This document shows, piece after piece, positions 12,532 through 53,204 of a stretch of DNA of 64,000 bases (within the stretch, counting starts at the first letter, position 1; the number at the start of each line of letters is the position of its first letter). The stretch comes from Trueperaceae bacterium. Its GTDB lineage: Bacteria; Deinococcota; Deinococci; Deinococcales; Trueperaceae. The position numbers and the translations under genes were made by a program. The notes beneath the pieces are model-generated. The model did not search any database. It worked only from the letters and a program-made list of their open reading frames with translations, and had not been told where the DNA came from. The stretch is taken from NCBI GenBank assembly GCA_965215565.1, contig CBDCDZ010000004.1, forward strand, positions 1,696,001 through 1,760,000. The letters are read 5' to 3'.

Positions 12532-12763
12532 GTAGGGGGAATTCATTAGCAGGTATCATCTGGTCTGAGTGTACGTAAGTTTTGCGAAGCAACACCCTCA
12601 CTGTAGAAAGCACTGTTTCCTTCGGAAAACTTCGTAATTCGCCTTGCGAAAACTCCGTAATTAGCACGCACGTTGTGAGGTGATACCTTTGGCGTTGCCA
12701 AAACTTCCGTAAGCGGCACTCTGTCTCAATATGTTTTGGAAGTGCTACATGAATTCCCCCTAC
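12532..12763. repeat. GTAG-class REP (type B) split by a MITE insertion
   Basis: gtagggggaattCAT[MITE]CATgaattccccctac. Confidence 0.85.
12547..12747 (+). mobile_element. TAGCAG-family MITE, 201 bp
   Basis: tagcaggtatcatc...ttggaagtgcta, flanked by CAT/CAT; 2 mismatches versus copy at 50395. Confidence 0.9.
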
Positions 12764-17495: not shown

Positions 17496-17697
17496 TAGCA
17501 CTTCCAAAGTATACTGAGACGGATGAGCACAAGCCTCTGTCCACAAGGACTAGCGGGATTTCATCACAATCAAGTGCGTGCTAATTGCGGAGTTTTCCGA
17601 TTACGAAGTTTCCCGCAGGGAAGGAAACAGTATTCTTTACGGTGAGAGGATCTCTGACCAGCTCCGAGCTTTGCGAGACAGACTTTGATACTTGCTA
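17496..17697 (-). mobile_element. TAGCAG-family MITE, reverse orientation, with nested inserts
   Basis: tagcacttccaa...gatacttgcta, flanked by TTA/TTA. Confidence 0.88.
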
Positions 17698-33311: not shown

Positions 33312-34517
33312 TTAGTTTGAACTAATTTCAGAAAAGGTCTCGGACTGGTAGGGTTCAGTCATCGGCACGAATTCGCCCCCTTCAACCTGCAAGAGGCGCA
33401 GGGCGTCCACACCGACGTGGTCATCTTCGCTAAAAGAAACAGGCGAGACGCCAAAGCCAGAGTCGTACGCGCCTTCCGCCTCATCGTTCATCGCTAGCAG
33501 TTCTTCGTACATCATCGCTGAGTCGATTTCATCGCCGCGCTCGGCGACGCGCCGCGCCGCTTCGATGTAGATGGCGGCTTGCATGAGTCCCGTCGTATAG
33601 TTCACGTCTTGGATACTTTCCTCACTGCGCCCGTAGCGCTCGCCGATTTCGCGCTGAAGCTGCATTCCCTGAGTTTGTTCGCTTTCTAGCACGAAGCTCG
33701 TCGCCCACAAGAAACCCTCCGCCGCCTCCCCCGCCAAGCTCGTCAAGGTGGAGCCGCCCGTGTAGTGTGCACCCATGAAAGTCATCGAATCCAAAAGCCC
33801 TAGCGCCTGCGCCGCATTCAGCATCGCTGCAACGGGCGATTGCACCGTCTGACTGATGACGTACTGGACGCCCTCAGCGTTCCACCTTTGCAACGTCGCT
33901 GTGTAGTCCGTCCCTTCACCGTGCTCTTGCACACCGACGATTTCAATGCCTAGAACCTCCGCCGCTGCCTGCGCATCCTCGACGGGCGCACGTCCGAAGG
34001 GGCTCGGGTGTGCGAGAATGGCGACTTTAGGTGCGGCGTCGCCCTCGTGGTTCTCGGCAATCCAATCTAGGAGCGCCACAACCTGCTCACTGTAAGAGGT
34101 GATGGGCAAGAAGTTGTAGGCGTTGTCGGGCGGGTTGATCACGCCGATATGCAGGCTCGCCGAAATCATCGGTATCTCCTCCTCGACGGCGTTGAGTTTA
34201 AGCTGCAAGGTCGCGCCCGTCGCGTAGGAGATAAAGGCGTCCATCTCTTCGTCTAGGTACGACTCGAAGTTGCGGAGCGTGTTGTCGTTGTTGTAGCCGT
34301 CGTCGTTGACCAGACATTCGACGCTCACGTCGGGGATGAGGTTCTCTTCGTTGGCGTAGCGGCAGTAGTCTTGCACCGCCTCGAAAACGAAGCGTCCGGC
34401 GTCGCTGGTGGGTCCGGTGACTGCACCCGACCAACCGATGACGACTTCATCCTGGGCGTAGCTCAGCCCGATGAGGGCACAGCAGAGGGTAAGCAATACT
34501 GTTTTAGCTCGTTTCAT
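33312..34517 (-). CDS. ABC substrate-binding protein, LivK-like
   Basis: Signal peptide MKRAKTVLLTLCCALIGLSYA, VTGPTS, DDGYN. Confidence 0.9.
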   Translation of the reverse strand: MKRAKTVLLTLCCALIGLSYAQDEVVIGWSGAVTGPTSDAGRFVFEAVQDYCRYANEENLIPDVSVECLVNDDGYNNDNTLRNFESYLDEEMDAFISYATGATLQLKLNAVEEEIPMISASLHIGVINPPDNAYNFLPITSYSEQVVALLDWIAENHEGDAAPKVAILAHPSPFGRAPVEDAQAAAEVLGIEIVGVQEHGEGTDYTATLQRWNAEGVQYVISQTVQSPVAAMLNAAQALGLLDSMTFMGAHYTGGSTLTSLAGEAAEGFLWATSFVLESEQTQGMQLQREIGERYGRSEESIQDVNYTTGLMQAAIYIEAARRVAERGDEIDSAMMYEELLAMNDEAEGAYDSGFGVSPVSFSEDDHVGVDALRLLQVEGGEFVPMTEPYQSETFSEISSN

Positions 34518-34589
34518 TCTGTCTCCTTGTGAATAGAAAAGATGAATGACAGGGTGTGATGATCTCTCTAGATATTCTTTGAATATCTG

Positions 34590-34746
34590 TAGCAGTTCCA
34601 CTTATCATTGCTTGGACGAAGTCATGTGAAGCAACACTTCTCCGCAGATCTCAGCCTGTCAAGGCTAGCGGAACTTCATCCCTGAAAGTGCGTGCTAGGC
34701 GATGTTCTTCTCAGTAAGAGTGTAGCTGACCAGATGATACCTGCTA
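34590..34746 (-). mobile_element. TAGCAG-family MITE, reverse orientation
   Basis: tagcagttcca...cagatgatacctgcta, flanked by CTG/CTG. Confidence 0.85.
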
Positions 34747-34863
34747 CTGAATACCTCTTTTAGTCGATAGCTCGAGCCACCTCCTCCAGAAGCTCTACGG
34801 CCACCTCTCGCGAGTTTACGCGGGTAGAGCCACCTCTTTTTTCGGTCCAGAGCGAGCATACCA

Positions 34864-35976
34864 TTAAAATTTGAACGGCCACCGCTTGAAGTACTGACGA
34901 ATAAGCCGCCACCAGTTCGCTAAACCCCTCGGCTCAAAAATCAGGAAGAGCACGATAATCAGCCCAAACACAGTGGGTCTCATGGCAGTTGCCACGTCGA
35001 TATTGTTGGGAAAGACCTGACCTAAGAACCCTGAGAACTCCTCCACCCAGGGGTCTAAGAAGAGGATGAAGGCGGGTCCAATCAGTGACCCCACCATAGT
35101 TCCCAGTCCTCCGACAATCGCCATTGCCAAAAAGTCAATAGAAATACCGAGCGTAAACGACTCGACAATCGCGCTGCCGTTATAGAGCGTAAAAAGTGCA
35201 CCTGCCACGCCTGCATAGAACCCGGCAACCGCAAACGCCATCACTTTGGTGCGCCCCGGCGCAATCCCCATCGCGTCCGCCGCCCGGTCATTATCGCGCA
35301 CCGCGATGAGCGAACGCCCGTACTTGCTGCGCAAGAGGTTGCGCATGAAAATCGCCATGATGACCACCACGGCGAGCACAAAATAATAGAAGAAGGGACC
35401 GATGGTAGACGAGCCGCTGATGCGCTCCCCGAAAAAGTCGATGCGCGGGATGCGGATGCTGCCCCCCTGATTGAGCCAGGGCGAATGCCCTACCGTCCAG
35501 GTGAAGATAATCTGAAAGGCGAGCGTGGAAATGGCAAGGTAGAGGTGTTTGAGTCGCAAACTCGGCAGCCCGACGAACGCCCCGAAGCCTGCCGCGACAA
35601 AGCCACAAATGGGTAAGAGGAGGATGACGTACCAAAAGGGAATCGCATCCTCAAAGCCGAACAGCGGCACCGCTAAATCCCGCGTCACTGTAATCGCCGT
35701 GTACGCCCCCACGCCCATAAACGCCGCTTGCCCGATCGAAATCTGCCCTGCGTAGCCCGTCACTAAGTTGAGCCCCATCACCGCCACCATATAGATGAGC
35801 GCCAAGTCGAAAAGCCGAAAGAGCGAGCGCGACATAAAGGGGAGTTGCGGCAAGACGAGGAGCGCGAGCAAGAAGATGACTAAAGACGCCTCTTCGCTGT
35901 AAGTGGCGAAAATCGTCTGGTCTTCCTTGTAACTTCTCCGGTAATTACCCGACTGAAACCAGCGATTAACAGCCAT
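34864..35976 (-). CDS. ABC permease, LivM-like
   Basis: GLNLVTGYAGQISIGQAAFMGVG, YLAISTLA, GRSLIAVRDN. Confidence 0.93.
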   Translation of the reverse strand: MAVNRWFQSGNYRRSYKEDQTIFATYSEEASLVIFLLALLVLPQLPFMSRSLFRLFDLALIYMVAVMGLNLVTGYAGQISIGQAAFMGVGAYTAITVTRDLAVPLFGFEDAIPFWYVILLLPICGFVAAGFGAFVGLPSLRLKHLYLAISTLAFQIIFTWTVGHSPWLNQGGSIRIPRIDFFGERISGSSTIGPFFYYFVLAVVVIMAIFMRNLLRSKYGRSLIAVRDNDRAADAMGIAPGRTKVMAFAVAGFYAGVAGALFTLYNGSAIVESFTLGISIDFLAMAIVGGLGTMVGSLIGPAFILFLDPWVEEFSGFLGQVFPNNIDVATAMRPTVFGLIIVLFLIFEPRGLANWWRLIRQYFKRWPFKF

Positions 35977-36092
35977 GATGCGCTCCGCAAAAGCAGGACT
36001 GAGAGAAGCGTTGCGAGGACTGAGTCAAAAGGTCAAAGGTTAAAGGTTGAGAGATACTTTTCTCTTTTCCCTCAGTCCTTTCAACTTGCTTT

Positions 36093-36986
36093 TTATACAC
36101 GTTCGATCTCCACCGTTCCAAAGAGCCCATAGGGCTTGATCAGCAGGATGATAATGAGAAGCACGAAAGGGACAACTTCACCTGTGCCGCCGCCGGGGAC
36201 GAAGGGGTCTAGGTAGCCCGACGCTAAAACCTCGGTGACGCCAATCAGCACACCGCCCACGACTGCGCCCGTCACGGAGTCGAGACCACCTAAGATGACG
36301 GCGGGAAAGACGCGCAGACCGATGGCGGTTAAGCCGGCGAACTCGAGCCCATAGAGCCCCCCTACTACGAAGCCCGCCGCTGTCGCGCTGATGCCCGCCG
36401 CCGCCCACGCCAGCGCAAAGACCCGCTCGATTGAAACCCCAACGCTCAGCGCCGCCAACTGATCATCCGCCACCGCCCGCATCGAAATCCCCAGCGTACT
36501 GCGCGTAAAAAACCAACTCAGCGCGAGGATGAAAAAGAGGGTGAGGCCAATCGCAATCGCTTGCTCCCAGCGGAGGATGATGCCACCAAAGGTGATGGGC
36601 GTGTTCGGCAAAAAGCTCGGAAACCGCGCCGTGAGGGTGCCGAAGGGCGTGAAGTAGACAAGCCCGGAGAGGAGACTCGCCAGACCTATCGTCACCATGA
36701 TGACGCTGATAATCGGTTCGCCGATCATTGGACGCAAGAAGAGGCGTTCGACGCCCTGCCCAACGAAGTACATTAAAACCATCGCCCCGACGAACGACAC
36801 CCAAATAGGGACGCCTGCCCACACCGTTAAACCGTAGATAATAAACGTGCCGATGGCAATGAGTTCGCCGTGCGCGAAGTTGATGACGCGGCTGGCTTTG
36901 TAGATGAGGACGAAGCCCAAAGCGGCTAAGGCGTAGATGCAGCCGACAGCGACGCCCGTGACGATAAGCTGAAGAAAGTAGGTCAT
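36093..36986 (-). CDS. ABC permease, LivH-like
   Basis: GCIYALAALGFVLIY, INFAHG, MRAVADD, KPYGLFG. Confidence 0.93.
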   Translation of the reverse strand: MTYFLQLIVTGVAVGCIYALAALGFVLIYKASRVINFAHGELIAIGTFIIYGLTVWAGVPIWVSFVGAMVLMYFVGQGVERLFLRPMIGEPIISVIMVTIGLASLLSGLVYFTPFGTLTARFPSFLPNTPITFGGIILRWEQAIAIGLTLFFILALSWFFTRSTLGISMRAVADDQLAALSVGVSIERVFALAWAAAGISATAAGFVVGGLYGLEFAGLTAIGLRVFPAVILGGLDSVTGAVVGGVLIGVTEVLASGYLDPFVPGGGTGEVVPFVLLIIILLIKPYGLFGTVEIERV

Positions 36987-37384
36987 AGGGAAACCTCTTC
37001 TTTAGGTGAAGGCCCGAAGCGGTTCTCACCCTCTGACCCTGCTAAACAACCTGTTTCGATGAACGCCCAAATCCCCCCGATGAGCGGCACGAAATTGATT
37101 AAGTACCACCACCCCGACTTCCCTCTGTCGTGCCAGCGCTTCACCTGTGTGGCGATGCCGGGCCATAAGAGCGCGAGGCTCCAGACAATCGCGAGCCAAT
37201 CCATAGGACCGCTGGGGCTGGTTTGGTTTGCGCCGCTCACGCCGCCCGCAAGAAGTCCGATGAGCAGGGAGATGCCGAGCGCAGGCAGCAGAAAATTGAG
37301 CCAGTACTGCTTGCGGCTGATGCGTCCTTTTAGGGAGAACAAAAACCACTGCCAATCCATCTGTTCGTTCACCTGTTTGGTCAC
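36983..37384 (-). CDS. DUF805 family membrane protein
   Basis: GRISRKQYW, VKRWHDRGKSGWW, NRFG. Confidence 0.9.
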   Translation of the reverse strand: MTKQVNEQMDWQWFLFSLKGRISRKQYWLNFLLPALGISLLIGLLAGGVSGANQTSPSGPMDWLAIVWSLALLWPGIATQVKRWHDRGKSGWWYLINFVPLIGGIWAFIETGCLAGSEGENRFGPSPKEEVSL

Positions 37385-37397
37385 TGTATACCTTTAT

Positions 37398-39365
37398 TCA
37401 CTGGACACCTCGAGCCGTCTTCTCTGGTTGGCGCGACTTCTCCGCTGAATCCGCCTCTAAAATCCGCACGTCCGTCTCCACCTCGTTGACTTGCCCGTCC
37501 TGATAGCGAAACTCCGCCTTGATGCTGACCTCTTCTAACTCCGGTTGATAGAGCGCTCCTAAAATCTCCCCGTAGCGCTTCCCAACGAAGCCGCGTCGCA
37601 CCTTGCCCGTGCGCGTAAGCTCTTCGTCGTCGGCGTCCAAGAGTTTGTAGAGTAAGACGAGGCGGTGAATGCGCTCCGCTTCATTCAAATCTTCGTTGAC
37701 GCTGTTGACCTCACTCAAGATGAGCTTGGCAACTTCGGTCTGCTGCGACAGGTCCATGTACGTCGTATAGGAAATCCCCTTGTCCTCCGCCCACTTGCCT
37801 ACCGTCATCGGGTCGATGTTGATTAGCGCGGTGATAAAGGGTTGATCGTCGCCGTACACCACCGCCTCTTTGATAAAGGGGCTGAACTTGAGCTTATTTT
37901 CGATGAACTGCGGGCTGAACATGTGCCCGCTGCCCGTGTGCATCACGTCACCCACACGGTCGATGATGACTAGGTGTCCGTCCTCGTCGAGATAGCCCGC
38001 GTCGCCACTTCTAAACCAGCCGCCTTCCGCCAAGACCTCTTCGAAATCTTCATCACGCTCGTAGTAGCCGTGACAGACGCCGTCGCAGCGGGTTAAAACC
38101 TCGCCGCTCTCGGAGATTTTCACCTCGACGCCAGGGAGCGGCAAGCCCACCGTATCGTGCTTCACGTCGCCGTCGCGCTGGATATACGCTAAGCCGGAGG
38201 TCTCGGTCTGTCCGTAGACCTGTTTGAGATTGACGCCCATCCCCTGAAAGAACTTGAAGGTGTCGGGTCCTAACGCCGCGCCGCCCGTGTAGGCGCGTTT
38301 GAGGCGCAGGAAACCCAACTGGTCTTTCATCGGGCGAAAGAGCGCGAAGTGGGCGAAGCGGTAGCCGATTCGTAGCCCTAGCGGTAAAGACTCGCCGCGC
38401 ATTCGGTAGTCGGCGGCGCGGCGTCCGACGTTCATGAGCGTCTTGTACGTCCAGCGGTTGAAGGGGTAAGACTCGTCCATCTTGACCCAGATATTCGACT
38501 GGACGCCCTCCCAAACACGCGGCGCACCCAGCATCATGTGGGGTCCAATCTCTTTGAGGTCGTCCATCGCCGTCTCGCTCGACTCGGGGAAATTCACCAC
38601 CATGCCCGTCAAGAGCGGCACGGCGAGCGCGAAGACTTGCTCGACGATCCAGGCGAAGGGGAGGTACGAGACGTAATCGTCGCCCTCGGCGATGGGGTCA
38701 ACTTGGTGGAGGGCGTGCGCCATCGCCAGGTAGTTGCGGTGGCTGAGCATGGCGGCTTTGGGGCGTCCGGTGGTGCCTGACGTTGCCGAGAGGTGGCAGA
38801 TGTCGTCCGAAGCGCCTTGCGCCACATGTTCGGCGAAGAGGGTAGGCTCGCGCTGGTGGAAGGCGTCGCCCGTCTCCAAAAGCTGCTGCCAGCTCATGAA
38901 CCAGTCGTCCTCTAAGTAGGGACGCATCCCCTTCTCGTCCTCGAAGATGACCTTTTTGATGTTCGGCAGTTCGCTCCGCAACGCCAAGACCTTATCGACT
39001 TGCTCTTGGTCTTCGGCTAGTACGAGGCTGGCTTCGCTGTACTCCAAGAGATACTTCACCTCGTCGCGCCCCGACGACTGATAAATCCCGATGGTCATTG
39101 CGCCTAAGCTTTGCGCCGCAAGTTCCGTGATGGTCCACTCGGGGATGTTGTCGGCGATGACGGCGACTCTGTCGCCTGGGGTAACGCCCAGCGAGAGGAG
39201 CCCTAAAGCGGCGTTGCGGACTTTGGTCTCGAGCCCCCGCCACGTCAACTCGTTCCAGATGCCGTAGTCCTTCTTGCGAAGCGCCACCTTGTCGGGTGTG
39301 GCAGCGGCGCGTTTTAGGAGGAGCTGCGGCAAGGTCATGTGCGCCATCTCGCGCGTTACGTTCAT
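37398..39365 (-). CDS. long-chain acyl-CoA synthetase (AMP-binding)
   Basis: TSGTTGRPK, YGQTE, SGDAG; start MNVTREM. Confidence 0.92.
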   Translation of the reverse strand: MNVTREMAHMTLPQLLLKRAAATPDKVALRKKDYGIWNELTWRGLETKVRNAALGLLSLGVTPGDRVAVIADNIPEWTITELAAQSLGAMTIGIYQSSGRDEVKYLLEYSEASLVLAEDQEQVDKVLALRSELPNIKKVIFEDEKGMRPYLEDDWFMSWQQLLETGDAFHQREPTLFAEHVAQGASDDICHLSATSGTTGRPKAAMLSHRNYLAMAHALHQVDPIAEGDDYVSYLPFAWIVEQVFALAVPLLTGMVVNFPESSETAMDDLKEIGPHMMLGAPRVWEGVQSNIWVKMDESYPFNRWTYKTLMNVGRRAADYRMRGESLPLGLRIGYRFAHFALFRPMKDQLGFLRLKRAYTGGAALGPDTFKFFQGMGVNLKQVYGQTETSGLAYIQRDGDVKHDTVGLPLPGVEVKISESGEVLTRCDGVCHGYYERDEDFEEVLAEGGWFRSGDAGYLDEDGHLVIIDRVGDVMHTGSGHMFSPQFIENKLKFSPFIKEAVVYGDDQPFITALINIDPMTVGKWAEDKGISYTTYMDLSQQTEVAKLILSEVNSVNEDLNEAERIHRLVLLYKLLDADDEELTRTGKVRRGFVGKRYGEILGALYQPELEEVSIKAEFRYQDGQVNEVETDVRILEADSAEKSRQPEKTARGVQ

Positions 39366-39387
39366 GAGGGAACCTCTTGAAGCTCGT

Positions 39388-40179
39388 TCATACGGAGACC
39401 TCTTCGTCCCCCACGTACGCCTCGATGACGGCGGGGTCTTTGGCGACCTCTTGCGGTTTACCCCCCGCGATGCGTTCGCCGAAGTCCAGCACGTAGACGA
39501 AGTCGCTGATGTCCATGACCACACCCAAATCGTGCTCGATTAAGACTACCGTCATGTCACGCTCCGCCTGAATATCTAAGATGAAGCGCACGATATCCTC
39601 TTTTTCGCCTAAGGTCATGCCCGCCATCGGCTCGTCTAAAAGGAGGAGTTTGGGACCGAGCGTCAAGGCCCGCGCCATCTCCACGCGCTTACGCACGCCG
39701 TAGGCGAGGCTGCCCACCACCTTTTTGCGGTAGGGTTCTAACTCCATAAAGTCGATGACCTCTTCCACGTAGGCGCGGTTTTGGCTCTCCTGTTTGCTCG
39801 TGCGTCCGTAAAAGAAGAGCGCTTGCCAGAAGCTGTAGTTGAGGTGCGCGTGCCGCGCCAACATGAGGTTGTCTAGCACCGACAGTCCCGAAAAGAGTTC
39901 GATATTTTGAAAGGCTCTGGCGACGCCCAACTTTGAAATTTGGTGCGGGCTCGCGCCCACTAAATCGTGACCTTCAAACTGAACCCTTCCGCTCGTCGCC
40001 TCGTAAAAGCCCGAGACGCAGTTTAGGAGGCTCGTCTTACCCGCGCCATTAGGACCTATGACCGAGGTGATCGTATTGGGCTCAACGCTGAGTGAGACGC
40101 GGCTCAGCGCGTTGAGCCCGCCGAAGGTGAGCGTCAGGTTCTCAACGACGAGTTGAGGAGATGCGGCTCGAGAAGCCAC
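39388..40179 (-). CDS. ABC ATPase, LivG-like
   Basis: GPNGAGKTS, LLDEPMAG, IEHD, VIEAYVG. Confidence 0.93.
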   Translation of the reverse strand: MASRAASPQLVVENLTLTFGGLNALSRVSLSVEPNTITSVIGPNGAGKTSLLNCVSGFYEATSGRVQFEGHDLVGASPHQISKLGVARAFQNIELFSGLSVLDNLMLARHAHLNYSFWQALFFYGRTSKQESQNRAYVEEVIDFMELEPYRKKVVGSLAYGVRKRVEMARALTLGPKLLLLDEPMAGMTLGEKEDIVRFILDIQAERDMTVVLIEHDLGVVMDISDFVYVLDFGERIAGGKPQEVAKDPAVIEAYVGDEEVSV

Positions 40180-40268
40180 GGGGTTGCACCTCGTTTCTTA
40201 CAGCAAGGATGACTTAGGGTAACGTGCTGCAAGTATATCAGTGAGGTGAAAGCGCATGTCAACTAATA

Positions 40269-40379
40269 TAGCAAGTATCATTTGGTTTGAGCCAGTCTCA
40301 CGTTAGAGAACTTGGGCGAACGCGCACATTCTTAAATGATACTTGCGCTATTCCAATTCAGTACTTCTGTGAACTGCTT
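40269..40379 (+). mobile_element. degenerate TAGCAG-family MITE (core length)
   Basis: tagcaagtatcatttggtttgag...cgcacattcttaaatgatacttgcgc...gaactgct. Confidence 0.7.
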
Positions 40380-40395
40380 TATCAGACTGAAAAGG

Positions 40396-40487
40396 GGGTG
40401 TCACAATGTGTGGGCGTTCGAAGTTACCCGCGCTGCGCGTTAGCAAGCTGAACATAGAGCGTTTAAGGATGTCACGTTGTGACACCC
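40396..40487. repeat. small element bounded by a 15-bp inverted repeat (candidate third MITE type)
   Basis: gggtgtcacaatgtg ... cacgttgtgacaccc. Confidence 0.5.
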
Positions 40488-40503
40488 TTAAATCACTTTG
40501 GTA

Positions 40504-40635
40504 TAGCAGGTATCATCTGGTCAGAGTGTACGAAGTTATGCGAAGCAACACTCTCACTTTGTGAAACGCTGTTTAGCACGCACTTTAAGGGATGATACCT
40601 GCGTTCAACTGTCTCAGTGTGTCGTGGAACTGCTA
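40504..40635 (+). mobile_element. TAGCAG-family MITE, core plus one 21-nt insert
   Basis: 132 bp, flanked by GTA/GTA. Confidence 0.88.
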
Positions 40636-40725
40636 GTATAAGGTGGATTCGCTAAGGCAACAGGCGTGGTTGAGCAACTTGAAAAGACAGAATCCTCGGG
40701 CAAAACTCGAGAACCGCGCCGACCT

Positions 40726-42705
40726 TCACGGTAGCGAGCGGAGCACCTGCGCGTTCTGCGCTGCACCCCGCCCGCGCTCCAGTAGGATACAGCAAGCCGC
40801 GTCGTAGTCGCGCACACCGTAGTCGCCCGCCTCGAGCAACGCGGCGAGTTGCTCTATCGTGTCCTCCCTCGAGCTAGGCCAGTAGTTCGCCCCCGGACGC
40901 AAGTCCATCAGCACCATGTCCACCTCTTTAGCGTGCGGAAGCATCTGCACGGTGTCCCTCGCCGAAAGGTGCGGCACGAACGTGCCCGTCGCCGCGACGC
41001 TCGCACGGGGCGGAATCCGCGCCAGCATCGCGTAGAGCTTCCCTTGGAAGGGCGTCGGCGCGTGGACGACGCTGCGCCTAGTCAAGAGCAGTTCGGCGGG
41101 CGGCAAAGCACCATACTGATAATTCATAAGCAGGCTCGAGGCAAAAAGCGCCGCTGCGAGCCCCACATGGTGGACGCGCGGCACCTTGCCGAGCCCCTTC
41201 GCCGCCAGAAAGAACACGAGCGGGATGACCACGGCGGGGTACTGATTGCCGATGTCGAACTGTCCCCGGAAGGAGGAGAGAAGCGCGGTGGCGAGCGCGG
41301 GTAGAATCACGAGCCACGCCCGCCCCGCCACGAGGGGCAAGAAGAGCACGGGGACGAAGAGGTAGCCCAGATACGCGAGCTTATGCGGATTGCCGAGGAT
41401 GTAAGTGAGCACGTAGAGCGGGTTCGTGAGCCCGGTCAAGGCGACGCCCACGAGCCCTTCGGAACCGGGCGCTACCACGTCCCCGAAGCGCCCTGCGATG
41501 AGGTTGTAGTCGCCGCTGCCGAAGTGAGGGATGAGCACCTCGACGATGACGAAAAAGGCGGCTGTACACACCGCCGTCACCGCGAACCCGAGCATGTAGC
41601 GCTTTTGAGCGAGAATATAGAGCCCGATGGCCGCGCCCGTCAAAGGGACATCCTCTTTGATGAGTAGCGAGAGAACGAGGAAGAGCCAGAAGAAAGGTAG
41701 GCGGTTCGTCTCGAGAAAGAGAAGCGTCAACAGTAAAAAGAGCGGCGCGAGCGCCACCTCGTGAAAGTGAAAGGTGTTGACGCCGTGCAGCGCGGCGAAG
41801 AGCAGGTAGCTCACGCTCAGCGTGAGCGCGAGCAGCGTGCGCCGCGTGAGGTGGAGCGTAAGGAGATAGAGGACGACTGCGCCCGAGCCGAGTAAGACGC
41901 TCTGCAACACGAGGAGCGTGCGGGCGTCTTGGTAGAGCGCATAAAAAGGCGTGAGCAAGTAGAGCGCGGGCGAGAAGTGGACGCTCCAAAAGCTCTCGGG
42001 CGGGTTGTGAACGACGGTAAAGAGCATCTCGCCTCGCTGCGCTGCGTAGTACATCACCTGGTCAAAGATGCCTAAGTCAAAGGCGTGGGTGTGAAAGGCG
42101 TTGTGACCAGACACGGTGAAGACGCTGAAGTAGACGCTGTACCCGAGGCTCGAGAGGGCGACGAGCGCGAGACCTCCGCGCCAGCGCCACTTAGCTTTAG
42201 GATAGACGTTGACCTCTTCGTCTACACCGCGCTCAGCACCACGCAACGTCTGAGCCGCTCGAGCCTCAACCCTCTTCCCTCTCGTCGCCTGAATCTCCCT
42301 GACGGCTAGGTAAAGAAGCCCGCTCGCACATAGGGTTAGGAAAAAGGTCAGAAAGCGGTGGGTATTCCCTAAGTTGGGCAGGAGGAGCGCGGGCAGCAGG
42401 ACTCCGGGGACGAGCAGCGAAAGCCAGGCGGCGACGTGTTGGGGTGCGTACTCAGCTTCTCTCGTTCTCATAAGCATGTGTGACGTTGCCAACCACAGGG
42501 CATAGGCGGAAGCGACACCGCCACCTAAATAACCCAGTAGTTCGCTACGTTCACCTAAAGGAAGCTGATTTTTCAGAATGAAAGGCGTAAGCTGCGCCCC
42601 GTGTAGCGCTGCCCACACTGCGAAACCAGCCGAAAATCCTGCTGCTAAAACGTAGATAAAGTAGCGCGGCGCAGTGCGCCCTAGCCTCCGTAAAACCATC
42701 TTCAT
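40726..42705 (-). CDS. DUF2079-like polytopic membrane protein (GT-C-like glycosyltransferase)
   Basis: FDLGIFDQ, HFSP, FHEV, KED motifs in a multi-TM protein. Confidence 0.8.
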   Translation of the reverse strand: MKMVLRRLGRTAPRYFIYVLAAGFSAGFAVWAALHGAQLTPFILKNQLPLGERSELLGYLGGGVASAYALWLATSHMLMRTREAEYAPQHVAAWLSLLVPGVLLPALLLPNLGNTHRFLTFFLTLCASGLLYLAVREIQATRGKRVEARAAQTLRGAERGVDEEVNVYPKAKWRWRGGLALVALSSLGYSVYFSVFTVSGHNAFHTHAFDLGIFDQVMYYAAQRGEMLFTVVHNPPESFWSVHFSPALYLLTPFYALYQDARTLLVLQSVLLGSGAVVLYLLTLHLTRRTLLALTLSVSYLLFAALHGVNTFHFHEVALAPLFLLLTLLFLETNRLPFFWLFLVLSLLIKEDVPLTGAAIGLYILAQKRYMLGFAVTAVCTAAFFVIVEVLIPHFGSGDYNLIAGRFGDVVAPGSEGLVGVALTGLTNPLYVLTYILGNPHKLAYLGYLFVPVLFLPLVAGRAWLVILPALATALLSSFRGQFDIGNQYPAVVIPLVFFLAAKGLGKVPRVHHVGLAAALFASSLLMNYQYGALPPAELLLTRRSVVHAPTPFQGKLYAMLARIPPRASVAATGTFVPHLSARDTVQMLPHAKEVDMVLMDLRPGANYWPSSREDTIEQLAALLEAGDYGVRDYDAACCILLERGRGAAQNAQVLRSLP

Positions 42706-42746
42706 CCCCCCGGATTCGCCCCTTGAATTTACTTCATGTACCCTCT

Positions 42747-43691
42747 TTAGGCTTGCGACACCTGCTTAGGCTGCTCGAGACCCAAGAGCACCCCCGCCCC
42801 GATAATGACCGCGAACCAGAGCGTCGCCAAACGGCACAAAATCACCGCAGCGCCCGCGTCCGCTTGTTCGGTGCCGAGCGCTAACAGCAGGAGCACCATG
42901 ACCGCTTCGGTGCTGCCCAAGCCCCCCGGCAAAAAGGACAGCGCCCCTACCGTCACTCCGAGCGAGTAGATGCCGACGCCAGCGACGAAGGTGGCGGGCA
43001 ACCCCATCCACGCGAGGATGAGGTAGAACGCCACCCCTTCCGCGCCCCACGCGAGCAGACTGAGACCCAAACCGCCCCAGAGGTAGCGGGGGGTGAGGAG
43101 GCTTTGCGCGGCTTCCATCATGTCCAGCGCGTGACCTGCGGGGCGCGCCAGCTTGTCGGGCAAGCGTTTTACGAGTTTGTCGCGGAGGAAAACTCTTGCG
43201 GCGCGGCTCTGCAACACGAGGATGAGCAGCGCTACAGCCGCGACGCTCAGCACGATAAAAACGATGTACTTGCCGAAGAACCACCCGCCCAAAGACGACA
43301 AGAGGACAATCGCCGCGAGGTCCGAGAGCCGCTCGACGAAGAGCGCCGATAAACTTTGCGGATAGGGGACGCCGTGCCGCTTGAGGTACAGTGAGCGCAC
43401 CGCCTCGCCCGCTTTGCCGGGCGTCGTCGTGAAGGCGAAGCCAGCGAGATAGTAACGGAACGACGCGCCGCGGGGCACGTCATAACCCAGGCGCGACAAG
43501 TACAGTTGCCAGCGTACAAAGCGCAACGCGTAGTTCACGAGCGACAAGCCCAAAACGAGCACGACGCCGCCGACGCCGAGCTTGGAAATTGCCGCCACCG
43601 TCTCGTCCCAACCGTTCCAAATCGCGAAGCCTACGTACGCCAGCACCGCCAAGAGCGCCGTGTAGATGAGCGGCTTGATCTTGCCTTCCAT
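42747..43691 (-). CDS. flippase-like membrane protein (UPF0104 / LPG synthase TM family)
   Basis: RFVRW, TPGKAGEAVR, VERLSD, PGGLGSTEA, RLATLW. Confidence 0.88.
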   Translation of the reverse strand: MEGKIKPLIYTALLAVLAYVGFAIWNGWDETVAAISKLGVGGVVLVLGLSLVNYALRFVRWQLYLSRLGYDVPRGASFRYYLAGFAFTTTPGKAGEAVRSLYLKRHGVPYPQSLSALFVERLSDLAAIVLLSSLGGWFFGKYIVFIVLSVAAVALLILVLQSRAARVFLRDKLVKRLPDKLARPAGHALDMMEAAQSLLTPRYLWGGLGLSLLAWGAEGVAFYLILAWMGLPATFVAGVGIYSLGVTVGALSFLPGGLGSTEAVMVLLLLALGTEQADAGAAVILCRLATLWFAVIIGAGVLLGLEQPKQVSQA

Positions 43692-43710
43692 CAGCAGGGT
43701 CCCCTCGCCA

Positions 43711-44448
43711 TCAGAGCTTGAGCCGCTTGAAAAGAGGCTCGGGCACGGCGCGAATGAGCAGCATGACAGCGCGCCAGAAAGGGGGTAAGTACACGATCTC
43801 TCGTCCCTGCTCCACCGCTTTAACGATTCCCGCCGCCACCCTCTCCGGCTGCGCGAAGAGGGCATTTTTGTCGATGTCTTTAGTCATGGGCGTATCCACG
43901 AAACCCGGCTTGATGGTGATAACCGAAACGCCCGCCGGGTGGAGGCGGTTGCGGAGCCCTTGTAAGAAGAGGCTCACGCCGCCCTTCGCCGTCCCGTAGA
44001 GGTAGTTACTCTGCCTGCCTCTATCGCCCGCTACGGATGAGATGACCGCGATGAAACCGCCGCGCTGCGCTTCGAACTGGTTGGCGAGGGGCGTTAAGAG
44101 CGAGACGACGCTCAGGAAGTTGGTTTTGAGTTCCCTTTCGGCTACGGCGAACTCCGCTTCACACGCCTTTTGGTCAGGAAGCGTGCCGTGCGCGATGAGG
44201 ACGCCGTCTAGGCCGTCCAACGCCTCGTTCGCCTCCAGGATGAGAGGTTCGTGCCTCTCAAAGTCGTTCACGTCGAGTACGGCGCACGCCACTTTCGCCG
44301 CGCCGCGTACGCGCAGGTCTTGGGCGACGGCGTCCAACTTCGCTCCGTCACGCGCTACTAGAAAGAGGCTCTCCCCCGTTGCAGCAAACCTTTTAGAAAC
44401 CTCTTGCGCAATGGCAGACGTCGCGCCGACGACTAAAATACGCCTCAC
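43711..44448 (-). CDS. DprE2-like SDR (polyprenylphosphoryl-2-keto-pentose reductase)
   Basis: VGATSAIA, SSVAGDRGRQSNYLYGTAK, KPGFVDTPMT; GTGA overlap with the DprE1-like gene. Confidence 0.85.
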   Translation of the reverse strand: MRRILVVGATSAIAQEVSKRFAATGESLFLVARDGAKLDAVAQDLRVRGAAKVACAVLDVNDFERHEPLILEANEALDGLDGVLIAHGTLPDQKACEAEFAVAERELKTNFLSVVSLLTPLANQFEAQRGGFIAVISSVAGDRGRQSNYLYGTAKGGVSLFLQGLRNRLHPAGVSVITIKPGFVDTPMTKDIDKNALFAQPERVAAGIVKAVEQGREIVYLPPFWRAVMLLIRAVPEPLFKRLKL

Positions 44449-45749
44449 GAGCCGACGCCTTCTTGCGTGACGCGCCGCCAAAAGCTCGAGGAAAACTGCG
44501 GGTCCACATATTGCGCAAACTCGCGCCACTGCGGATAGAAGCGCTGGAAGCTTTCCAGCGACATCCGCGCGTCCTTCGCCGGGTAGACGCGCCCGCCGCT
44601 CTCTGCGATGACCTCGTCGAGGTGCTCTAAAAGCGCCAACAACCTCTCTTGGTAGGGGAAGTCGAGCGCCAGCGTCACCCCTTGGCGCGGAAAGGACATC
44701 ATGCCGGGTGAGGGCAGCGAGCCAAACATTTTGAGCACCGCTAAAAATGAGCCCATGCCCGAGGCGGCGATCTCTTCAAAAATCCTGCGAATCACGCGCG
44801 TATCCCCGTCAAAGGGCAGGACGAACTGATACTGCAAGAAGCCGCGCTTACCGTAGATGCGGTTCCAGTTGCCGATGCTGTCGAGCGGGTAGAAGAAGGG
44901 CTCGTAGTGCTGCCTAGAGCGCACGACTTTCTGCCGCTGCTTGTGGTAGTAGAGCACGTTGAACGTCTTCATTGTCAGGTTGTTGAGGAGCACGTTGGGC
45001 GCGTCCATCGGCACGCTGAAAAGCTGCTTACCCTTCGTGGTCAACTCGCCCACTTCCGCGTGGTTGCCGCGCATCAAAAGACCGCGCCCGAGGCTATCCC
45101 CCTGCGCCAAGCAGTCCACCCACGCCACGGTGTAGTCAAACGCTTCGTCAGACTCGGCGGAGCGCTCAAAGAATTCGTCAAGGTTCGCAAACTTCACCGT
45201 CTCCACGTCGAAGAAGGCGTTTTTGACCCTTTTGAGCGCGACTTCGGCCCAGAGGATGAGCCCCGTTAAGCCGAGCCCGCCGATGGTGGCGCGAAACAGC
45301 TCAGCGTTCTCGTTTTCGGAACAGATCAAGCGCTGACCGTCCGAACGCAAAAGTTCAAAGCGCGTCACGTGCCGCCCGAACGTTCCGGCGCGGTGGTGGT
45401 TCTTGCCGTGAATGTCGTTCGCGATTGCGCCCGCCACAGAGACGTATTTCGTACCAGGACTGACGGGCAAAAACCAGCCTTGCGGCACGGCGAACTTCAA
45501 AATCTGCTCTAAGCTCACGCCCGCTTCGGCGCGTAAGATGCCCGTTTCCGCGTCGAAGGCGATGAAGCGGTCCAGCTTCGTCGTGTCGAGCAGGACGCCG
45601 CCGTCGTTCAAGCAGCTATCGCCGTAGCTCCTGCCGTGCCCGTAAGGGAGCACCGAGGTCTCGCCCGTCGGCAACGTTTCATCGCGCCAACTCATCTGCT
45701 GGATGGTTTCGTCGGTTTTCGGGTAGTTGCCCCAGGATTTATAAGCCAT
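44445..45749 (-). CDS. DprE1-like FAD oxidoreductase (polyprenylphosphoryl-ribose 2'-oxidase)
   Basis: GRSYGD, PGTKYVSVAGAIANDIHGKNHH, GFLQYQ, FLAVLK, GRVYPAKD. Confidence 0.9.
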   Translation of the reverse strand: MAYKSWGNYPKTDETIQQMSWRDETLPTGETSVLPYGHGRSYGDSCLNDGGVLLDTTKLDRFIAFDAETGILRAEAGVSLEQILKFAVPQGWFLPVSPGTKYVSVAGAIANDIHGKNHHRAGTFGRHVTRFELLRSDGQRLICSENENAELFRATIGGLGLTGLILWAEVALKRVKNAFFDVETVKFANLDEFFERSAESDEAFDYTVAWVDCLAQGDSLGRGLLMRGNHAEVGELTTKGKQLFSVPMDAPNVLLNNLTMKTFNVLYYHKQRQKVVRSRQHYEPFFYPLDSIGNWNRIYGKRGFLQYQFVLPFDGDTRVIRRIFEEIAASGMGSFLAVLKMFGSLPSPGMMSFPRQGVTLALDFPYQERLLALLEHLDEVIAESGGRVYPAKDARMSLESFQRFYPQWREFAQYVDPQFSSSFWRRVTQEGVGS

Positions 45750-45808
45750 TGAGTGTCTCCATCTTTTAGTTCTGAATGAGCATTGAGCGCTTAATTGACT
45801 GAGAGGCA

Positions 45809-45878
45809 GTTAGCTCTTAGCGTTTAGCTGTTAGCAAAAGCGTTTAAGCTAACCGCTAATGGCTAACGGCTAAAAGCT
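45809..45878. repeat. inverted heptamer array, same family as 8880-8964
   Basis: gttagct cttagcg tttagct gttagca aaagcgtttaa gctaacc gctaatg gctaacg gctaaaa. Confidence 0.85.
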
Positions 45879-45916
45879 TCCGAAAAGAGGGTGAAAACGA
45901 AACAAGATTGGTATCC

Positions 45917-47377
45917 TTAAAAGTTCCAACTCGCCGCCACTGCTACTAACGCGGCGCTTATCCCGACAGCGTAACTCACGCGGTCTTTGAGCGCAAAGAC
46001 TACCGGGTCATCGTGCATCTCGCCGCGGCGCGCCAAGAGCCAAACGCGGCTTATCCAGTAGAGCATCAAAGGGCAGATAAGCCATAGCGCACCGGGCACA
46101 GTGTAGAGCGTCATCACGGCGTCGCTGCTGATGTAGAGCGCCATGACGAGAACGGAGATGTAGCCGCTCGCCGCGCCCAAACTCGCTAGTTGTTCTAAGT
46201 CGCCGACCATGTAGCCTCGAGCCCGCGCCTTACTGTCACCCTGCGCGTGGAGCGCCCTGAGTTCCGAAAAACGCTTGACGAAGGCGAGGCTCAAAAAGAA
46301 GAACATCGAAAAGGCTAAGAGCCAGGGCGAAATGGTGATACCTGTCGCCGCCGCGCCGCCTACAATGCGCACCGTGTAGAGCCCCGCGAGCAAAATGACA
46401 TCTAAAAGCGCAACTTGCTTGATGTAGAACGAGTACGACACCGTGAGGACGAGGTAGCCGAGGAGGAGCAGGAAGAAGGTTGGCGGCAGAAAGAGGGCGA
46501 CAGCGAGCCCGGCGAGTAAAAAGAGAGGCGTCACCGCGAAACCCAGCTTGAGCGGCAGCGCGCCCGACGCAAAAGGCCGAAAGCGCTTGCGGTGATGCCG
46601 CCGGTCAGCCGCCAAGTCGAGCATATCGTTCGTGAGGTAGACCGACGAGGCGCAGAGCCCAAAGGCGACGAAAGCGAGCGTGGCTTGCCCGAGAAGCTGC
46701 ACGTTGAAAATCTGGTGTGCGGTTACGAGCGGCACGAAGAGTAGCGCGTTTTTAGCCCATTGGTGGAGGCGCGCCGCTTTGAGGACGAGCTGCCAGGTGG
46801 GTTTTCGGGGTTCTGCGAAGACGTGGCTGACTTGGGTGACCTCTCGAGCTTTGTCGGCGAGAGAACGGCTGGGGCTGACGACTATCCCTTCCGCCGCGCC
46901 GCGCCACACCTTGAGGTCAACCTCGGCGTTGCCTGCATAGGCGAACGTGCCGTACTTCTCTCTGAGAACGTCCAACTTGCCTCCGCCCGCCCGGTTCACG
47001 CCGCCATCGCTCGCCACGACTTCGCCAAAGAGCCCGATGTGCTCGGCAATCTGCGCCGCAACCTTTCGGTCTGCCGCCGTCGCTAAGACGAGCGTGCGTC
47101 CCCTAGCGCGCTCGTCTTGCAGATAGGCGATAAGCGGCTCGTCATAGGGCAAGCTCGCCGGGTCGATTTCGACACGCTTACTTACCTCTTGCTTGAGGTG
47201 CGCCTTGCCGCGCCGCAACCAGAAGGGCAGCATCAAGAGGTAGAGCGGGTTTTTCTTGAGCAGCAGCAGCAGCGTTTCTAAGAGCATGTCCGTGCGGACG
47301 AGCGTACCGTCTAAGTCGACGCAGAGCGGCGTACGCGCCACCTGAGCGCGTCTTTCTTGCGTTGTAGGTTGAATCAT
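45917..47377 (-). CDS. HAD-like domain + UbiA-family polyprenyl-phosphate phosphoribosyltransferase
   Basis: VDLDGTL N-terminus; RLHQWAKN, YLTNDMLDLAADRRH..KRFRPFASG, HDDPVVFALKD. Confidence 0.9.
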   Translation of the reverse strand: MIQPTTQERRAQVARTPLCVDLDGTLVRTDMLLETLLLLLKKNPLYLLMLPFWLRRGKAHLKQEVSKRVEIDPASLPYDEPLIAYLQDERARGRTLVLATAADRKVAAQIAEHIGLFGEVVASDGGVNRAGGGKLDVLREKYGTFAYAGNAEVDLKVWRGAAEGIVVSPSRSLADKAREVTQVSHVFAEPRKPTWQLVLKAARLHQWAKNALLFVPLVTAHQIFNVQLLGQATLAFVAFGLCASSVYLTNDMLDLAADRRHHRKRFRPFASGALPLKLGFAVTPLFLLAGLAVALFLPPTFFLLLLGYLVLTVSYSFYIKQVALLDVILLAGLYTVRIVGGAAATGITISPWLLAFSMFFFLSLAFVKRFSELRALHAQGDSKARARGYMVGDLEQLASLGAASGYISVLVMALYISSDAVMTLYTVPGALWLICPLMLYWISRVWLLARRGEMHDDPVVFALKDRVSYAVGISAALVAVAASWNF

Positions 47378-47411
47378 TGAGCCCCCGGTGAAGTGAGTAA
47401 CGCGCGATTTC

Positions 47412-47685
47412 TAGCAGGTATCAAAGTCTGTCTCGCTAGTGCTCGGAGCTGGTTTGAGTGTACGAAGTTACTGTCGCGTGGTCCCGCTGTCGCACACGCT
47501 CCCGCTAGCCGCTAGGCGAAGCAACACTCTTACTACAACAAGCGGTGTTTAGCGCGCACATTATAAGATGATACCTTGTCGGTTATGGAATTTTCGCCTA
47601 GTGGGAGCGAAGCGACAAGGCGAAACTTCGTCCCTGCGGGCTTTCAGAAAGCGGACATTTGTCTCAGTATGTTTTGGAACTGCTA
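47412..47685 (+). mobile_element. TAGCAG-family MITE, 274 bp, with multiple nested inserts
   Basis: tagcaggtatca...ttggaactgcta, flanked by TTC/TTC. Confidence 0.88.
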
Positions 47686-48253
47686 TTCGAAGCGCAGTGC
47701 GGAAGTGATACCCTATAGGGCGCATACCTAGCTCACTATAAAACGCTTAGATGAAGAGCAGCTTATGAAGTAGCTTACGACGTAGCCTCAGGAAATGAGG
47801 CGTGACGATCTACTGAAACCTCGTTCAAACCTCTCATCTATATCATTTTGTCATTTTATTCTAATTTTCGAGGATACAAGTGCGCTGCAAGAAGATTCAA
47901 AAAAGCTTGTGTAGCACGGTAAAACTAACGACTCTTCCAGCAGGGAGTGAGCGTTTATGAGAATTTGTTAACTGAAGCATTAAGACAAGCCTTATGTGTT
48001 TTCGGAGTGAGTGGAGTAATATACATACATGAGTCTCTGCGCTGCCCAGCGCCCTGACTCCTCCGATGCGGCGGTTTTTCTTACCGGGGAGGCCACCCTA
48101 ACGACTGCTTAAAGCCGCCGCGTCTACTTATCTGCTACTTCGCACTGTTTTTTAGCAGCAGATAACCGCTCGAGACCCTAGCGAATTACTCTCTTTGTCT
48201 CTTCGGGACCTCTCGAGCTTCCTCAACCTCTTCGGAGCGTCACTCAAGGAGCA

Positions 48254-49414: not shown

Positions 49415-49452
49415 GGGTTTATCCTTTTCTGTCCCTCAAAAGGCACATCTCA

Positions 49453-49597
49453 TACGGATTCCGATAACTACTACATAAACTCCTTCGGAGTTGATTCCGT
49501 CCCTTTCAGGGGTACTCCGTGAAAATTATCGGAACCCGTAGTCTTTTCAACTCGCTCTGCTCGGGTTAATTCCTTTAGGAATTAACCCGAAACGGTA
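49453..49597. mobile_element. Deinococcus SRE-like MITE
   Basis: TACGGATTCCGATAA...TTATCGGAACCCGTA...CTCGCTCTGCTCGGGTTAATTCC-GGAATTAACCCGA...GGTA, flanked by TCA/TCA. Confidence 0.75.
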
Positions 49598-49602
49598 TCA
49601 TT

Positions 49603-49637
49603 AAAAGAAAAGCGACCTCACCACTAAGGCGGGTCGT
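49603..49637 (-). terminator. intrinsic terminator upstream of the aminotransferase (candidate attenuator)
   Basis: minus strand CGACCCGCC-TTAGT-GGTGAGGTCG-CTTTTCTTTT. Confidence 0.65.
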
Positions 49638-49673
49638 TAGATTGCACGATGAGCCATAAAAGCGCATCGCAGG

Positions 49674-49703
49674 CTAGTTAGCTCGCTGGGTAGAGCCGTT
49701 CAT
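49674..49703 (-). CDS. candidate leaderless leader peptide MNGSTQRAN
   Basis: TAGACT -10 box exactly 6 nt before ATG; followed by two hairpins and a U-tract. Confidence 0.45.
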   Translation of the reverse strand: MNGSTQRAN

Positions 49704-49755
49704 GGGGATAGTCTACACAACTGAGTAAGTTGTGTAAAGTGGAATGGCTTACAGG

Positions 49756-50158: not shown

Positions 50159-50269
50159 TAGCAGGTATCATCTGGTTTGAGACACCCTCACCGTTTAGGG
50201 TATCGTCTAGCACGCACGTTCTGAGATGATATCTGCGCTCATCCGTCTCAGTATGTCTTGGAACTGCTA
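50159..50269 (+). mobile_element. TAGCAG-family MITE, minimal 111-bp core
   Basis: No inserts; flanks AGT/AGC. Confidence 0.85.
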
Positions 50270-50394: not shown

Positions 50395-50595
50395 TAGCAG
50401 GTATCATCTGGTCTGAGTGTACGTAAGTTTTGCGAAGCAACACCCTCACCGTAGAAAACACTGTTTCCTTCGGAAAACTTCGTAATTCGCCTTGCGAAAA
50501 CTCCGTAATTAGCACGCACGTTGTGAGGTGATACCTTTGGCGTTGCCAAAACTTCCGTAAGCGGCACTCTGTCTCAATATGTTTTGGAAGTGCTA
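50395..50595 (+). mobile_element. TAGCAG-family MITE, 201 bp
   Basis: 199/201 identical to 12547-12747; flanks TTA/TTC. Confidence 0.9.
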
Positions 50596-50612
50596 TTCAG
50601 TTAAAAGTGCAG

Positions 50613-53033: not shown

Positions 53034-53204
53034 AGGTAGAGGAACGCTGAGTTTGAATCACGCAGACATCATCTTTCGAACGTGTACCGATCAGTTCTTT
53101 TCCCACTGAGAGCGTGTACGACCAGATGAGGTTCCGCTAGCCCAGGGGCTGAGTGCGCGAAGCTTTACGGAGTAACCTGCTACACAACTGAATAGGAGTA
53201 CAAG

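Follow-up and report, generated by a model that had tools for sequence, protein, structure and literature searches.

The small dispersed repeats (SDRs) of Nostoc form a class of sequences 21-27 nt in length, and two of them, SDR1 and SDR4, occur nested in themselves, in MITEs and in heptamer arrays. Elhai et al. 2008 (Genome Res 18:1484) reportedly described a shared fold for SDR4-6 and are said to have suggested RNA intermediates for the SDRs; that paper and its supplements may already show the two-hairpin fold considered below. The IS200/IS605 elements move by a peel-and-paste reaction that is precise, leaves no target site duplication (TSD) and follows a strand-specific single-stranded DNA (ssDNA) logic, with hairpins near the ends of the element.

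SDR5 is 21 nt long (PMC13756078) and splits HIP1 after its third base (PMC4390886). As far as the accessible text of the sources goes, it was not found in HIP1-rich cyanobacteria outside the Nostocaceae (PMC5861425) and its function was still called unknown in 2026 (PMC13756078). Cyanobacterial repeats are listed among untagged REP-like families in the available part of PMC3733652, while the available parts of PMC2884548 and PMC3116915 cite Elhai et al. 2008 and hold nothing further on SDRs. No enzyme for SDRs was found in the literature surveyed, and a search thin on subscription papers gave no description of comparable units in Trueperaceae or Deinococcota. RAYT cuts C/T (Corneloup et al. 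2021, PMC8266576; a slash in a motif marks a junction throughout), and the same source, in its accessible part, gives the guide rule by which IS200/IS605 elements recognize their targets. According to the portion available of PMC13037366, only GNA triloops form the DNA mini-hairpin, the RNA counterpart being far weaker, with r(GCGAAAGC) melting at 39°C, and current folding parameters miss these mini-hairpins.

Here we analyse short hairpin inserts in a 64,000-nt stretch of DNA (the window, G000:C4:1696001-1760000) within the 4.49-Mb genome, G000, of a Trueperaceae genus. A preliminary description of the window had read them as an ultra-small mobile unit that nests in MITEs and in itself.

The host MITE and its genome setting

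The host repeat of the units is 111 nt long and ends in TAGCAG..CTGCTA. It has terminal inverted repeats, a TSD and no open reading frame, as defines a MITE. BLAST gave 516 merged intervals of the family in G000 and 257 full-length copies, 84 of them exactly 111 nt long; a 3-bp TSD was present at 172 of the 257 copies, compared with 6 when the flanks were shuffled. A cognate transposase was looked for in G000 and not found. Seven long elements with MITE-like ends turned out to be IS110 inserted into the MITE. The IS110 element (G000:C4:3105968-3107204, L013, and six further copies) encodes a 312-aa recombinase and is inserted at one MITE site, GGTATC/ATCTGG, with a TC core; this is core site 11, which it shares with the type F unit at 17664-17686. 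Within its 180-nt 5' non-coding end are segments that match the donor end as well as the flanks on either side of the target, in keeping with a bridge RNA.

Several other repeats were noted in the genome. A MITE copy at C4:1174177-1174463 carries a unit that itself bears a long tandem array of another hairpin repeat, of 30-35 nt. In a 1027-bp insertion sequence (G000:C4:75958-76984 and 837813-838839, L018) the transposase frame is broken by a hairpin repeat of ∼39 nt that also occurs elsewhere in G000. CRISPR repeats of the CTATTCCCCAC..GATGAACCG type form at least two arrays at G000:C4:4338710-4350282. G000:C3:1-23751 consists of a little over two tandem copies of a plasmid- or phage-like unit of ∼11 kb, possibly an assembly duplication.

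Inserts of discrete length

Insert lengths were determined by profile alignment of 253 MITE copies of up to 330 nt to the 111-nt core, counting inserts of at least 12 nt. Among the 298 inserts, 204 were 20-27 nt long and 66 were 38-53 nt long; none measured 28-37 nt, 6 were shorter and 22 longer. The differences between MITE copies thus resolve into discrete modules, as first proposed, and the alignment reproduced the compositions given for the copies at 40504, 12547 and 50395 (Table 1). The proposed unit length of 21-24 nt was too narrow: there is a discrete peak with its mode at 21 nt, but single units span 17-27 nt, and single units of type C are 17-19 nt long. Six fixed core sites are filled in nearly all combinations, none is filled in 95 of 247 copies, and no copy has more than four filled.

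Table 1. Coordinates of MITE copies and inserted units in the window
Feature	Position	Strand	Remarks
MITE copy	12547..12747	+	core + 22 + 44 + 24 nt
Units in the 12547 copy	A2 12570-12591; A1 12617-12637 + 12638-12660; A1 12689-12712		A2 22 nt; last A1 24 nt
MITE copy (host)	17496..17697	-	202 nt, TTA duplicated; core + 23 + 42 + 25 (+1); four units
Type B unit	17535..17559	+	AGCGGGA tail after the hairpin; at core site 68-75; unlike empty sites in its junction base
Outer A1 unit, split by inner unit	17585-17600 + 17622-17626	+	21 nt; core site 48
Inner A1 unit of 17496 copy	17601..17621	+	T + AC-GAA-GT mini-hairpin + TCCC-GCA-GGGA hairpin
Type F unit	17664..17686	+	core site 11; bulged hairpin, covarying 2-bp inner stem
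MITE copy	34590..34746	-	A2 unit 34613-34633 + type B unit 34650-34674
Empty MITE copy	40269..40379	+	111 nt
MITE copy with one A2 unit	40504..40635	+	unit 40527-40547, 21 nt
MITE copy	47412..47685	+	multiply nested inserts of 24, 65 and 74 nt
Unit in SRE-like repeat	49501..49523	-	23 nt; AC-GGA-GT + CCCT-GAA-AGGG on minus strand
Empty MITE copy	50159..50269	+	111 nt; used as core query
MITE copy	50395..50595	+	22 + 44 + 24 nt inserts, same as in 12547
Type B unit beside A2-type unit	53131..53174	+	B 53131-53153 (read on minus); A2-type 53154-53174, 21 nt; in MITE end

A genome-wide search for pairs of filled and empty sites recovered the same units in heptamer arrays, in the SRE-like repeat, in other repeats and in one another, and a few lie at unique sites outside any recognized repeat. 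The module reported near position 49501 is present in the SRE-like repeat, for which empty sites exist. The nested module of the 17496 copy is likewise real, a 21-nt unit in the loop of another, but the register first given for it was shifted, within a 2-nt ambiguity; the insertion point is directly 5' of an A in the GAA loop of the outer unit. We conclude that the inserts, which comprise ∼50 sequence types, are almost certainly real insertion units. They are discrete, structure-conserved and precisely inserted, as suggested for a mobile unit, but are not specific to the MITE. The motif of a hairpin followed by an A tail was found 199 times in C4, compared with 31 in a Markov control. A search for the modules within genes gave 32 A1 motifs in coding DNA, against 31 in the Markov control for the whole chromosome, and there is no enrichment of units in the coding DNA of G000.

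Polarity and fold of the units

Units of the main class (types A1, A2 and C; 17-27 nt) read on one strand as N/T, a GNA or GNNA mini-hairpin, a second hairpin, and /A. A unique register was available for 142 of the 231 indel classes, and main-class units occupy their sites without any target base being duplicated or lost. On the strand used in the preliminary description, T precedes the insert in 112 of the 142 unique-register junction calls, which include noise and shifted duplicate calls, and 103 have A as the last base of the insert. The informative strand is the opposite one, on which the unit accordingly begins with T and lies 5' of an A. Each module had originally been read as a hairpin followed by AACT(T/C)CGT. 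The hairpin stands; the supposed tail is a covarying GNA mini-hairpin on the opposite strand and is not fixed in sequence. Examples are AC-GAA-GT, GC-GAA-GC, CT-GAA-AG, CC-GTA-GG and AG-GCA-CT.

A GNA or GNNA hairpin with a stem of at least 2 bp was present on the informative strand in 124 of the 231 distinct 17-27-nt classes and on the other strand in 20; in 500 shuffles of the tails the count averaged 4.4 and never exceeded 12. In a pairing test on 112 related sequences, with the pyrimidine and purine of the first pair fixed, Watson-Crick pairing was seen at the first inner pair of the mini-hairpin in 97 and at the second in 96, against 72 and 48 after shuffling. Such shuffle tests overstate significance because the unit sequences are related. 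The second pair occurs as A-T, G-C, C-G and T-A, so the covariation expected of a conserved stem is seen as compensatory changes. The third is mostly unpaired, being Watson-Crick in 19/112 and usually T-T. As an independent check, a degenerate pattern that left both stem partners free had 54 matches in 4 of 81 genomes, with the second pair formed in 54/54 and the third in 51/54. G-T wobbles are rare in the mini-hairpin stem (3 of 224 cells). Among 333 first loops, mostly triloops on 2-bp stems, GAA (115), GCA (62), GTA (47) and GGA (30) were the commonest, and some are the GNRA tetraloops GTAA, GCAA and GGAA; the second hairpin has a GNA loop in only 121/333. ViennaRNA folded only one hairpin of the units and gave no significant z-score, and the window from 12000 to 54000 had no Rfam match.

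The remaining types are less uniform. The second module type of the preliminary description, CTCAG..GGAAC (our type B), does occur in opposite orientations at 34650-34674 (+) and 53131-53153 (-), but its junction is unlike that of the main class and it may be a separate one. Type B has a GNA loop on the hairpin-first strand, and in 47/47 filled copies at core 68-75 the junction-adjacent base differs from that of empty sites. Types D, F and G have tails of their own, and G has one base in common with the flank. A structure of B within B and the long D unit resemble inverted self-copies. Types B, D, F and G may be related to the main class or constitute separate classes.

A one-base rule for the two arms

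The lengths of the unit arms follow a simple rule. We defined the dumbbell difference as the number of bases before loop 1 plus those after loop 2, minus the number between the loops. It equals 1 in 84 of 94 two-hairpin sequences, which were kept from 151 registers and preselected for the T..A register and two hairpins, and in 46 of 53 types after near-identical sequences were collapsed. When arm lengths were permuted (5000 rounds), 14 and 20 types obeyed the rule on average and 26 and 32 at most, against the 46/53 observed. There are 23 arm geometries among these sequences, so that a lengthened or shortened arm is met by a corresponding change in its partner. A dumbbell of 5-10 bp with two loop caps can thus form, in which a single base stays unpaired where the ends of the unit meet or beside that point. 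Such a fold would hold the flanks next to each other in the integrated single strand. No clear fit to the rule is seen for types B, D, F and G.

Insertion sites and distribution among genomes

After clustering, 38 distinct target sites remained, spread over unrelated hosts. The dinucleotide that follows the cut was AC at 22 sites, AG at 7, AA at 5 and AT at 4, the A being imposed by selection; the base before the target A was G at 12, T at 12, C at 10 and A at 4. One site inside a G unit has received ten different units, and one 21-mer (at most 1 mismatch) occurs in four unrelated contexts. When junctions were checked by eye, no guide rule was seen by which the unit stem predicts the target dinucleotide.

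The A1 pattern was found 62 times in G000, 28 in G001, 24 in G002 and once each in G193 and G198; the search covered 301 Deinococcota genomes, and the remaining 296 lacked it. One unpublished genome, G253, is counted in this tally and in those of RAYT and of the degenerate pattern; no claim is made on it alone. In G193, which belongs to another genus, five A2 copies occupy one MITE site. MITE relatives in G005, also of another genus, carried no unit in 16 loci read by eye and 6 aligned copies. A double-GNA descriptor gave 245 matches against a background of 33 in G000, 10 against 7 in G001, 17 against 6 in G002 and 4 against 4 in 400 kb of G005. In a wider contig scan, 10 of the 80 matches listed (of at least 102) came from Trueperaceae and lay in repeats or intergenic DNA; the others resemble scattered chance matches. 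A degenerate double-hairpin motif had no match in a metagenome scan, and the 17496 copy found 3 weak partial matches in a plasmid collection. Units are also inserted in CGTC-type repeats in G001 and G002.

Search for a mobilizing enzyme

Among the candidates examined, we found no enzyme tied to the units. A test of co-occurrence with HUH/RAYT, GIY-YIG or reverse transcriptase genes had been proposed; in the genomes compared, RAYT and GIY-YIG genes did not track the units. RAYT is present in G000 and G001 and was not found in G002, which is 97% complete and has 24 A1 units. It was rejected for this reason, because its C/T rule is matched by neither junction of the units, and because it has REPs of its own: a GTAG REP palindrome lies inside the RAYT coding sequence in G000 and G001, and C4 has 36 such REPs. 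The gene itself (L012:1462-1986, minus; L039; in G000 at C4:3590035-3590556) sits between mutS-like and mutL-like genes. GIY-YIG genes are ordinary ones in all 5 genomes, the one extra gene in G002 being tied to the CGTC-type repeat; this small gene (L095, G002:C10) is preceded by such repeats rich in GCGNAGC motifs. RVT_1 (PF00078) had no match in G000, DUF559 was absent from G000, and no IS91 Y2 transposase was found in any of five genomes (0/5).

Only two Y1 matches were found in G000, RAYT and a Y1 domain inside a restriction-modification protein, and neither is a canonical TnpA. The latter is a Y1_Tnp HUH domain in frame in a restriction-modification-like protein of ∼1320 aa (L011; G000:C4:3786234-3786551, minus). 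Four-helix-bundle genes were rejected as mobilizers, being present in G000-G002 only and not found in G193, which has units. These genes (PF05635, L256-L260) are flanked by inverted heptamer-type tandem repeats in G000-G002, and none was found in G005 either. Tyrosine recombinases were set aside as well, with one descriptor match within 5 kb of five chromosomal genes, as was topoisomerase IB (TopIB) as a carrier-specific enzyme, since it is present in 5/5 genomes, the non-carrier G005 included. IS110, with its 7 copies, does target the MITE, yet its guides fit a single site. Among 3,891 gene calls, a regular expression for the HUH motif picked out no further candidate, and RAYT itself escaped it. 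Genes bracketed by units offered no telling case.

A possible mechanism and its alternatives

On balance we favor the view that the units are SDR-type micro-mobile elements acting as folded ssDNA. An ssDNA rather than an RNA intermediate is likely, because GNA loops form a DNA-specific fold. When the host DNA becomes single-stranded, the two hairpins would stack, placing one end of the unit next to the other. The strand would then be cut before the first T and before the A that follows the second hairpin by a strand-transfer enzyme acting in trans, the flanks would be rejoined, and a nuclease-resistant dumbbell would be released. In the reverse reaction the dumbbell would be pasted 5' of an A, mostly of AC, in hairpin-rich ssDNA such as MITEs, heptamer arrays and other units. 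MITE transposition and patchy conversion between copies would then multiply and shuffle the filled sites. As for the enzyme, our preferred guess, a tentative one, is of the phosphotyrosine HUH type; Rep proteins often nick 5' of an A. One point against this view is the lack of a lagging-strand bias of the units (91/192 in MITEs and 68/141 elsewhere), in a test blurred by host movement and chance matches. For the transcribed strand the units show no bias (51/100 and 31/59).

The same ssDNA dumbbell could be handled by housekeeping enzymes, either a structure-specific flap nuclease with a ligase or TopIB, with no dedicated mobilizer, but we regard this as unlikely. No dedicated enzyme was found co-occurring with the units, the dumbbell rule suggests that the integrated fold would be a nicked dumbbell with flaps, and a Topoisom_I gene is present in 5/5 genomes tested. 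TopIB links through a 3'-phosphotyrosine after T and, acting on the complementary strand, would account for the T/ rule. However, TopIB also occurs in the unit-free G005 and in D. radiodurans, and since the A1 pattern is absent from 296 of the 301 Deinococcota genomes, a route through housekeeping enzymes leaves the patchy distribution to be explained in some other way.

Mobility through RNA, whether by reverse splicing or by insertion templated by a reverse transcriptase, seems improbable. It would account for precise insertion without TSD, the units lie in intergenic, probably transcribed repeats, and some first loops are GNRA tetraloops. Most first loops, however, are GNA triloops on 2-bp stems, a DNA-specific fold, and the rarity of G-T wobbles in those stems, the absence of RVT_1 from G000, the lack of transcriptional orientation bias and the lack of an Rfam match all speak against it.

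History of the insertions

Some core pairs differ only by a unit and look recent: the empty copy at C4:1041301 has a core identical to that of the 40504 copy, which has one unit, and at one site different units are found in cores that are nearly identical. Other insertions are old, since identical units stand at identical MITE sites in other species; an identical 21-mer occurs at the same MITE site in G193. The linkage r2 between core positions is 0.17 at 1-5 nt and 0.06-0.08 beyond, a decay reached in 0 of 2000 permutations. The flank variant ACCC/ is present in 7/25 filled and 1/138 empty site-76 copies, and the same unit and flank recur in G002. Together, linkage decay and a flank variant that rides with the unit indicate that conversion between MITE copies probably moves units too. 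Filled copies therefore overcount insertions, and some of the units in the MITE are probably there through transposition of the MITE and conversion between its copies rather than through new insertions. Contigs of 4 read sets compared with the window at 34500-54400 break at repeats, so that presence or absence at individual loci cannot be read from them. The units may still be mobile today.

These same observations (the r2 decay, the flank variant travelling with one unit, and the shared 21-mer of G193) would also be expected if a few ancient, now immobile insertions had been spread by MITE transposition and conversion, their fold kept by selection on the host repeat. We give this explanation marginally less credence than the RNA route: unrelated hosts hold at least 38 target sites, a single site can carry as many as ten different units, one unit recurs in unrelated contexts, and there are units nested in units and units outside recognized repeats. 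It also bears on timing and counts and not on the origin of the first insertions. The preliminary description named loss of parts from a single long ancestor and local slippage as explanations that would refute insertion. Neither explains the units, and an artefact of this kind, or one of template switching, is very improbable: 95 of 247 MITE copies lack an insert and none has all six sites filled, relatives in G005 are empty, one unit occurs in unrelated hosts, and main-class inserts have no sequence in common with their flanks and need no duplication. This largely refutes it for A1, A2 and C. For D or the palindromes of B, given the likeness of the long D unit and of B within B to inverted self-copies, it could still hold.

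Comparison with known elements

The loops of the units correspond to the DNA mini-hairpin d(GCGNAGC), as the exact motif and as C-GNA-G and GNNA variants; the available part of PMC13037366 reports this structure from replication origins, the N4 promoter and aptamer caps, and not as a mobile unit. Like IS200/IS605 elements, the units insert precisely and without TSD, would follow a strand-specific ssDNA logic and carry hairpins near their ends. Unlike them, they have no conserved tetranucleotide 5' of the cut, the 5' flank being variable, and no room for a guide and spacer; moreover, G000 has no canonical TnpA and the units show no replication-strand bias. With the REP/RAYT system they share short intergenic hairpin DNA, absence of TSD and a GNAG-like word 5' of the larger hairpin. 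In the units, however, that word spans the loop of a covarying mini-hairpin together with its 3' arm, with no fixed GTAG, and the unit junctions are N/T and N/A rather than C/T (or C/A). No unit flanks the RAYT gene, the nearest descriptor matches being 3.1 kb off.

The parallel with the Nostoc SDRs drawn in the preliminary description proved to be the closest. In 400 kb of two Nostoc plasmids we found 14 GC-rich two-hairpin stretches between GCG and ATCGC (one mismatch allowed). All of the T-starting HIP1 inserts among them (9/9; 21-22 nt) have GNA or GTAA loops and a dumbbell difference of 1. They have the 5-3-7-3-3 geometry of A2 units, with one 22-mer carrying a tetraloop. The other 5 of the 14 candidates, with uncertain ends, gave differences of 0, 2, 2, 3 and 3. 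With a Nostoc 21-mer and its flanks as query, 55 plasmid records were obtained, the named ones almost all from Nostocales. We call the 21-nt HIP1 insert SDR5 from its length, site and host, not from a published SDR5 sequence.

Trueperaceae units and SDR5 have in common a 21-nt class, precise TSD-free insertion, the N/T.../A polarity (GCG/unit/ATCGC in SDR5), two tandem GNA hairpins, the rule of one spare base, tetraloop variants 1 nt longer, and a fold that in the Trueperaceae units is kept by compensatory pairs despite sequence change. Nesting in themselves, in MITEs and in heptamer arrays matches what is known of SDR1 and SDR4. They differ in their targets, which are many N/A(C) sites in Trueperaceae: none of the 38 is GCG/ATCGC, and /A is all that they commonly share with it. 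The host is not one of the Nostocaceae, the sequence types, at least 50 in number, have no identity with SDR5 beyond motifs, and the units are not enriched in coding DNA. The evidence from Trueperaceae favors ssDNA, whereas an RNA intermediate has reportedly been proposed for SDRs. Because the target is not HIP1 and phylum and sequences differ, the units are not SDR5 itself; that they are of the same kind is very likely. The term 'undescribed system' claimed too much, since the Nostoc insert agrees with the units in length, polarity and fold, and the units are an SDR-type micro-element in a second phylum rather than an undescribed class.

This places SDR-type elements in the Deinococcota, where ∼50 types and 38 sites with empty alleles suffice to read the rule. 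The strand, the first base, the target base, two GNA loops and one spare base are common to the Trueperaceae units and the Nostoc element. A rule of shape that spans two phyla turns the open SDR question into a defined substrate with a testable mechanism. More speculatively, both may belong to a cross-phylum class of mobile DNA of 17-27 nt defined by shape alone, a nicked dumbbell with GNA caps and one spare base, which would be excised and put back as ssDNA by one strand-transfer activity common to Trueperaceae and heterocystous cyanobacteria. If so, it would be a transposon without terminal repeats, among the smallest known, whose only sequence signals are a T and an A, and which inserts by a precise, scar-free ssDNA chemistry.
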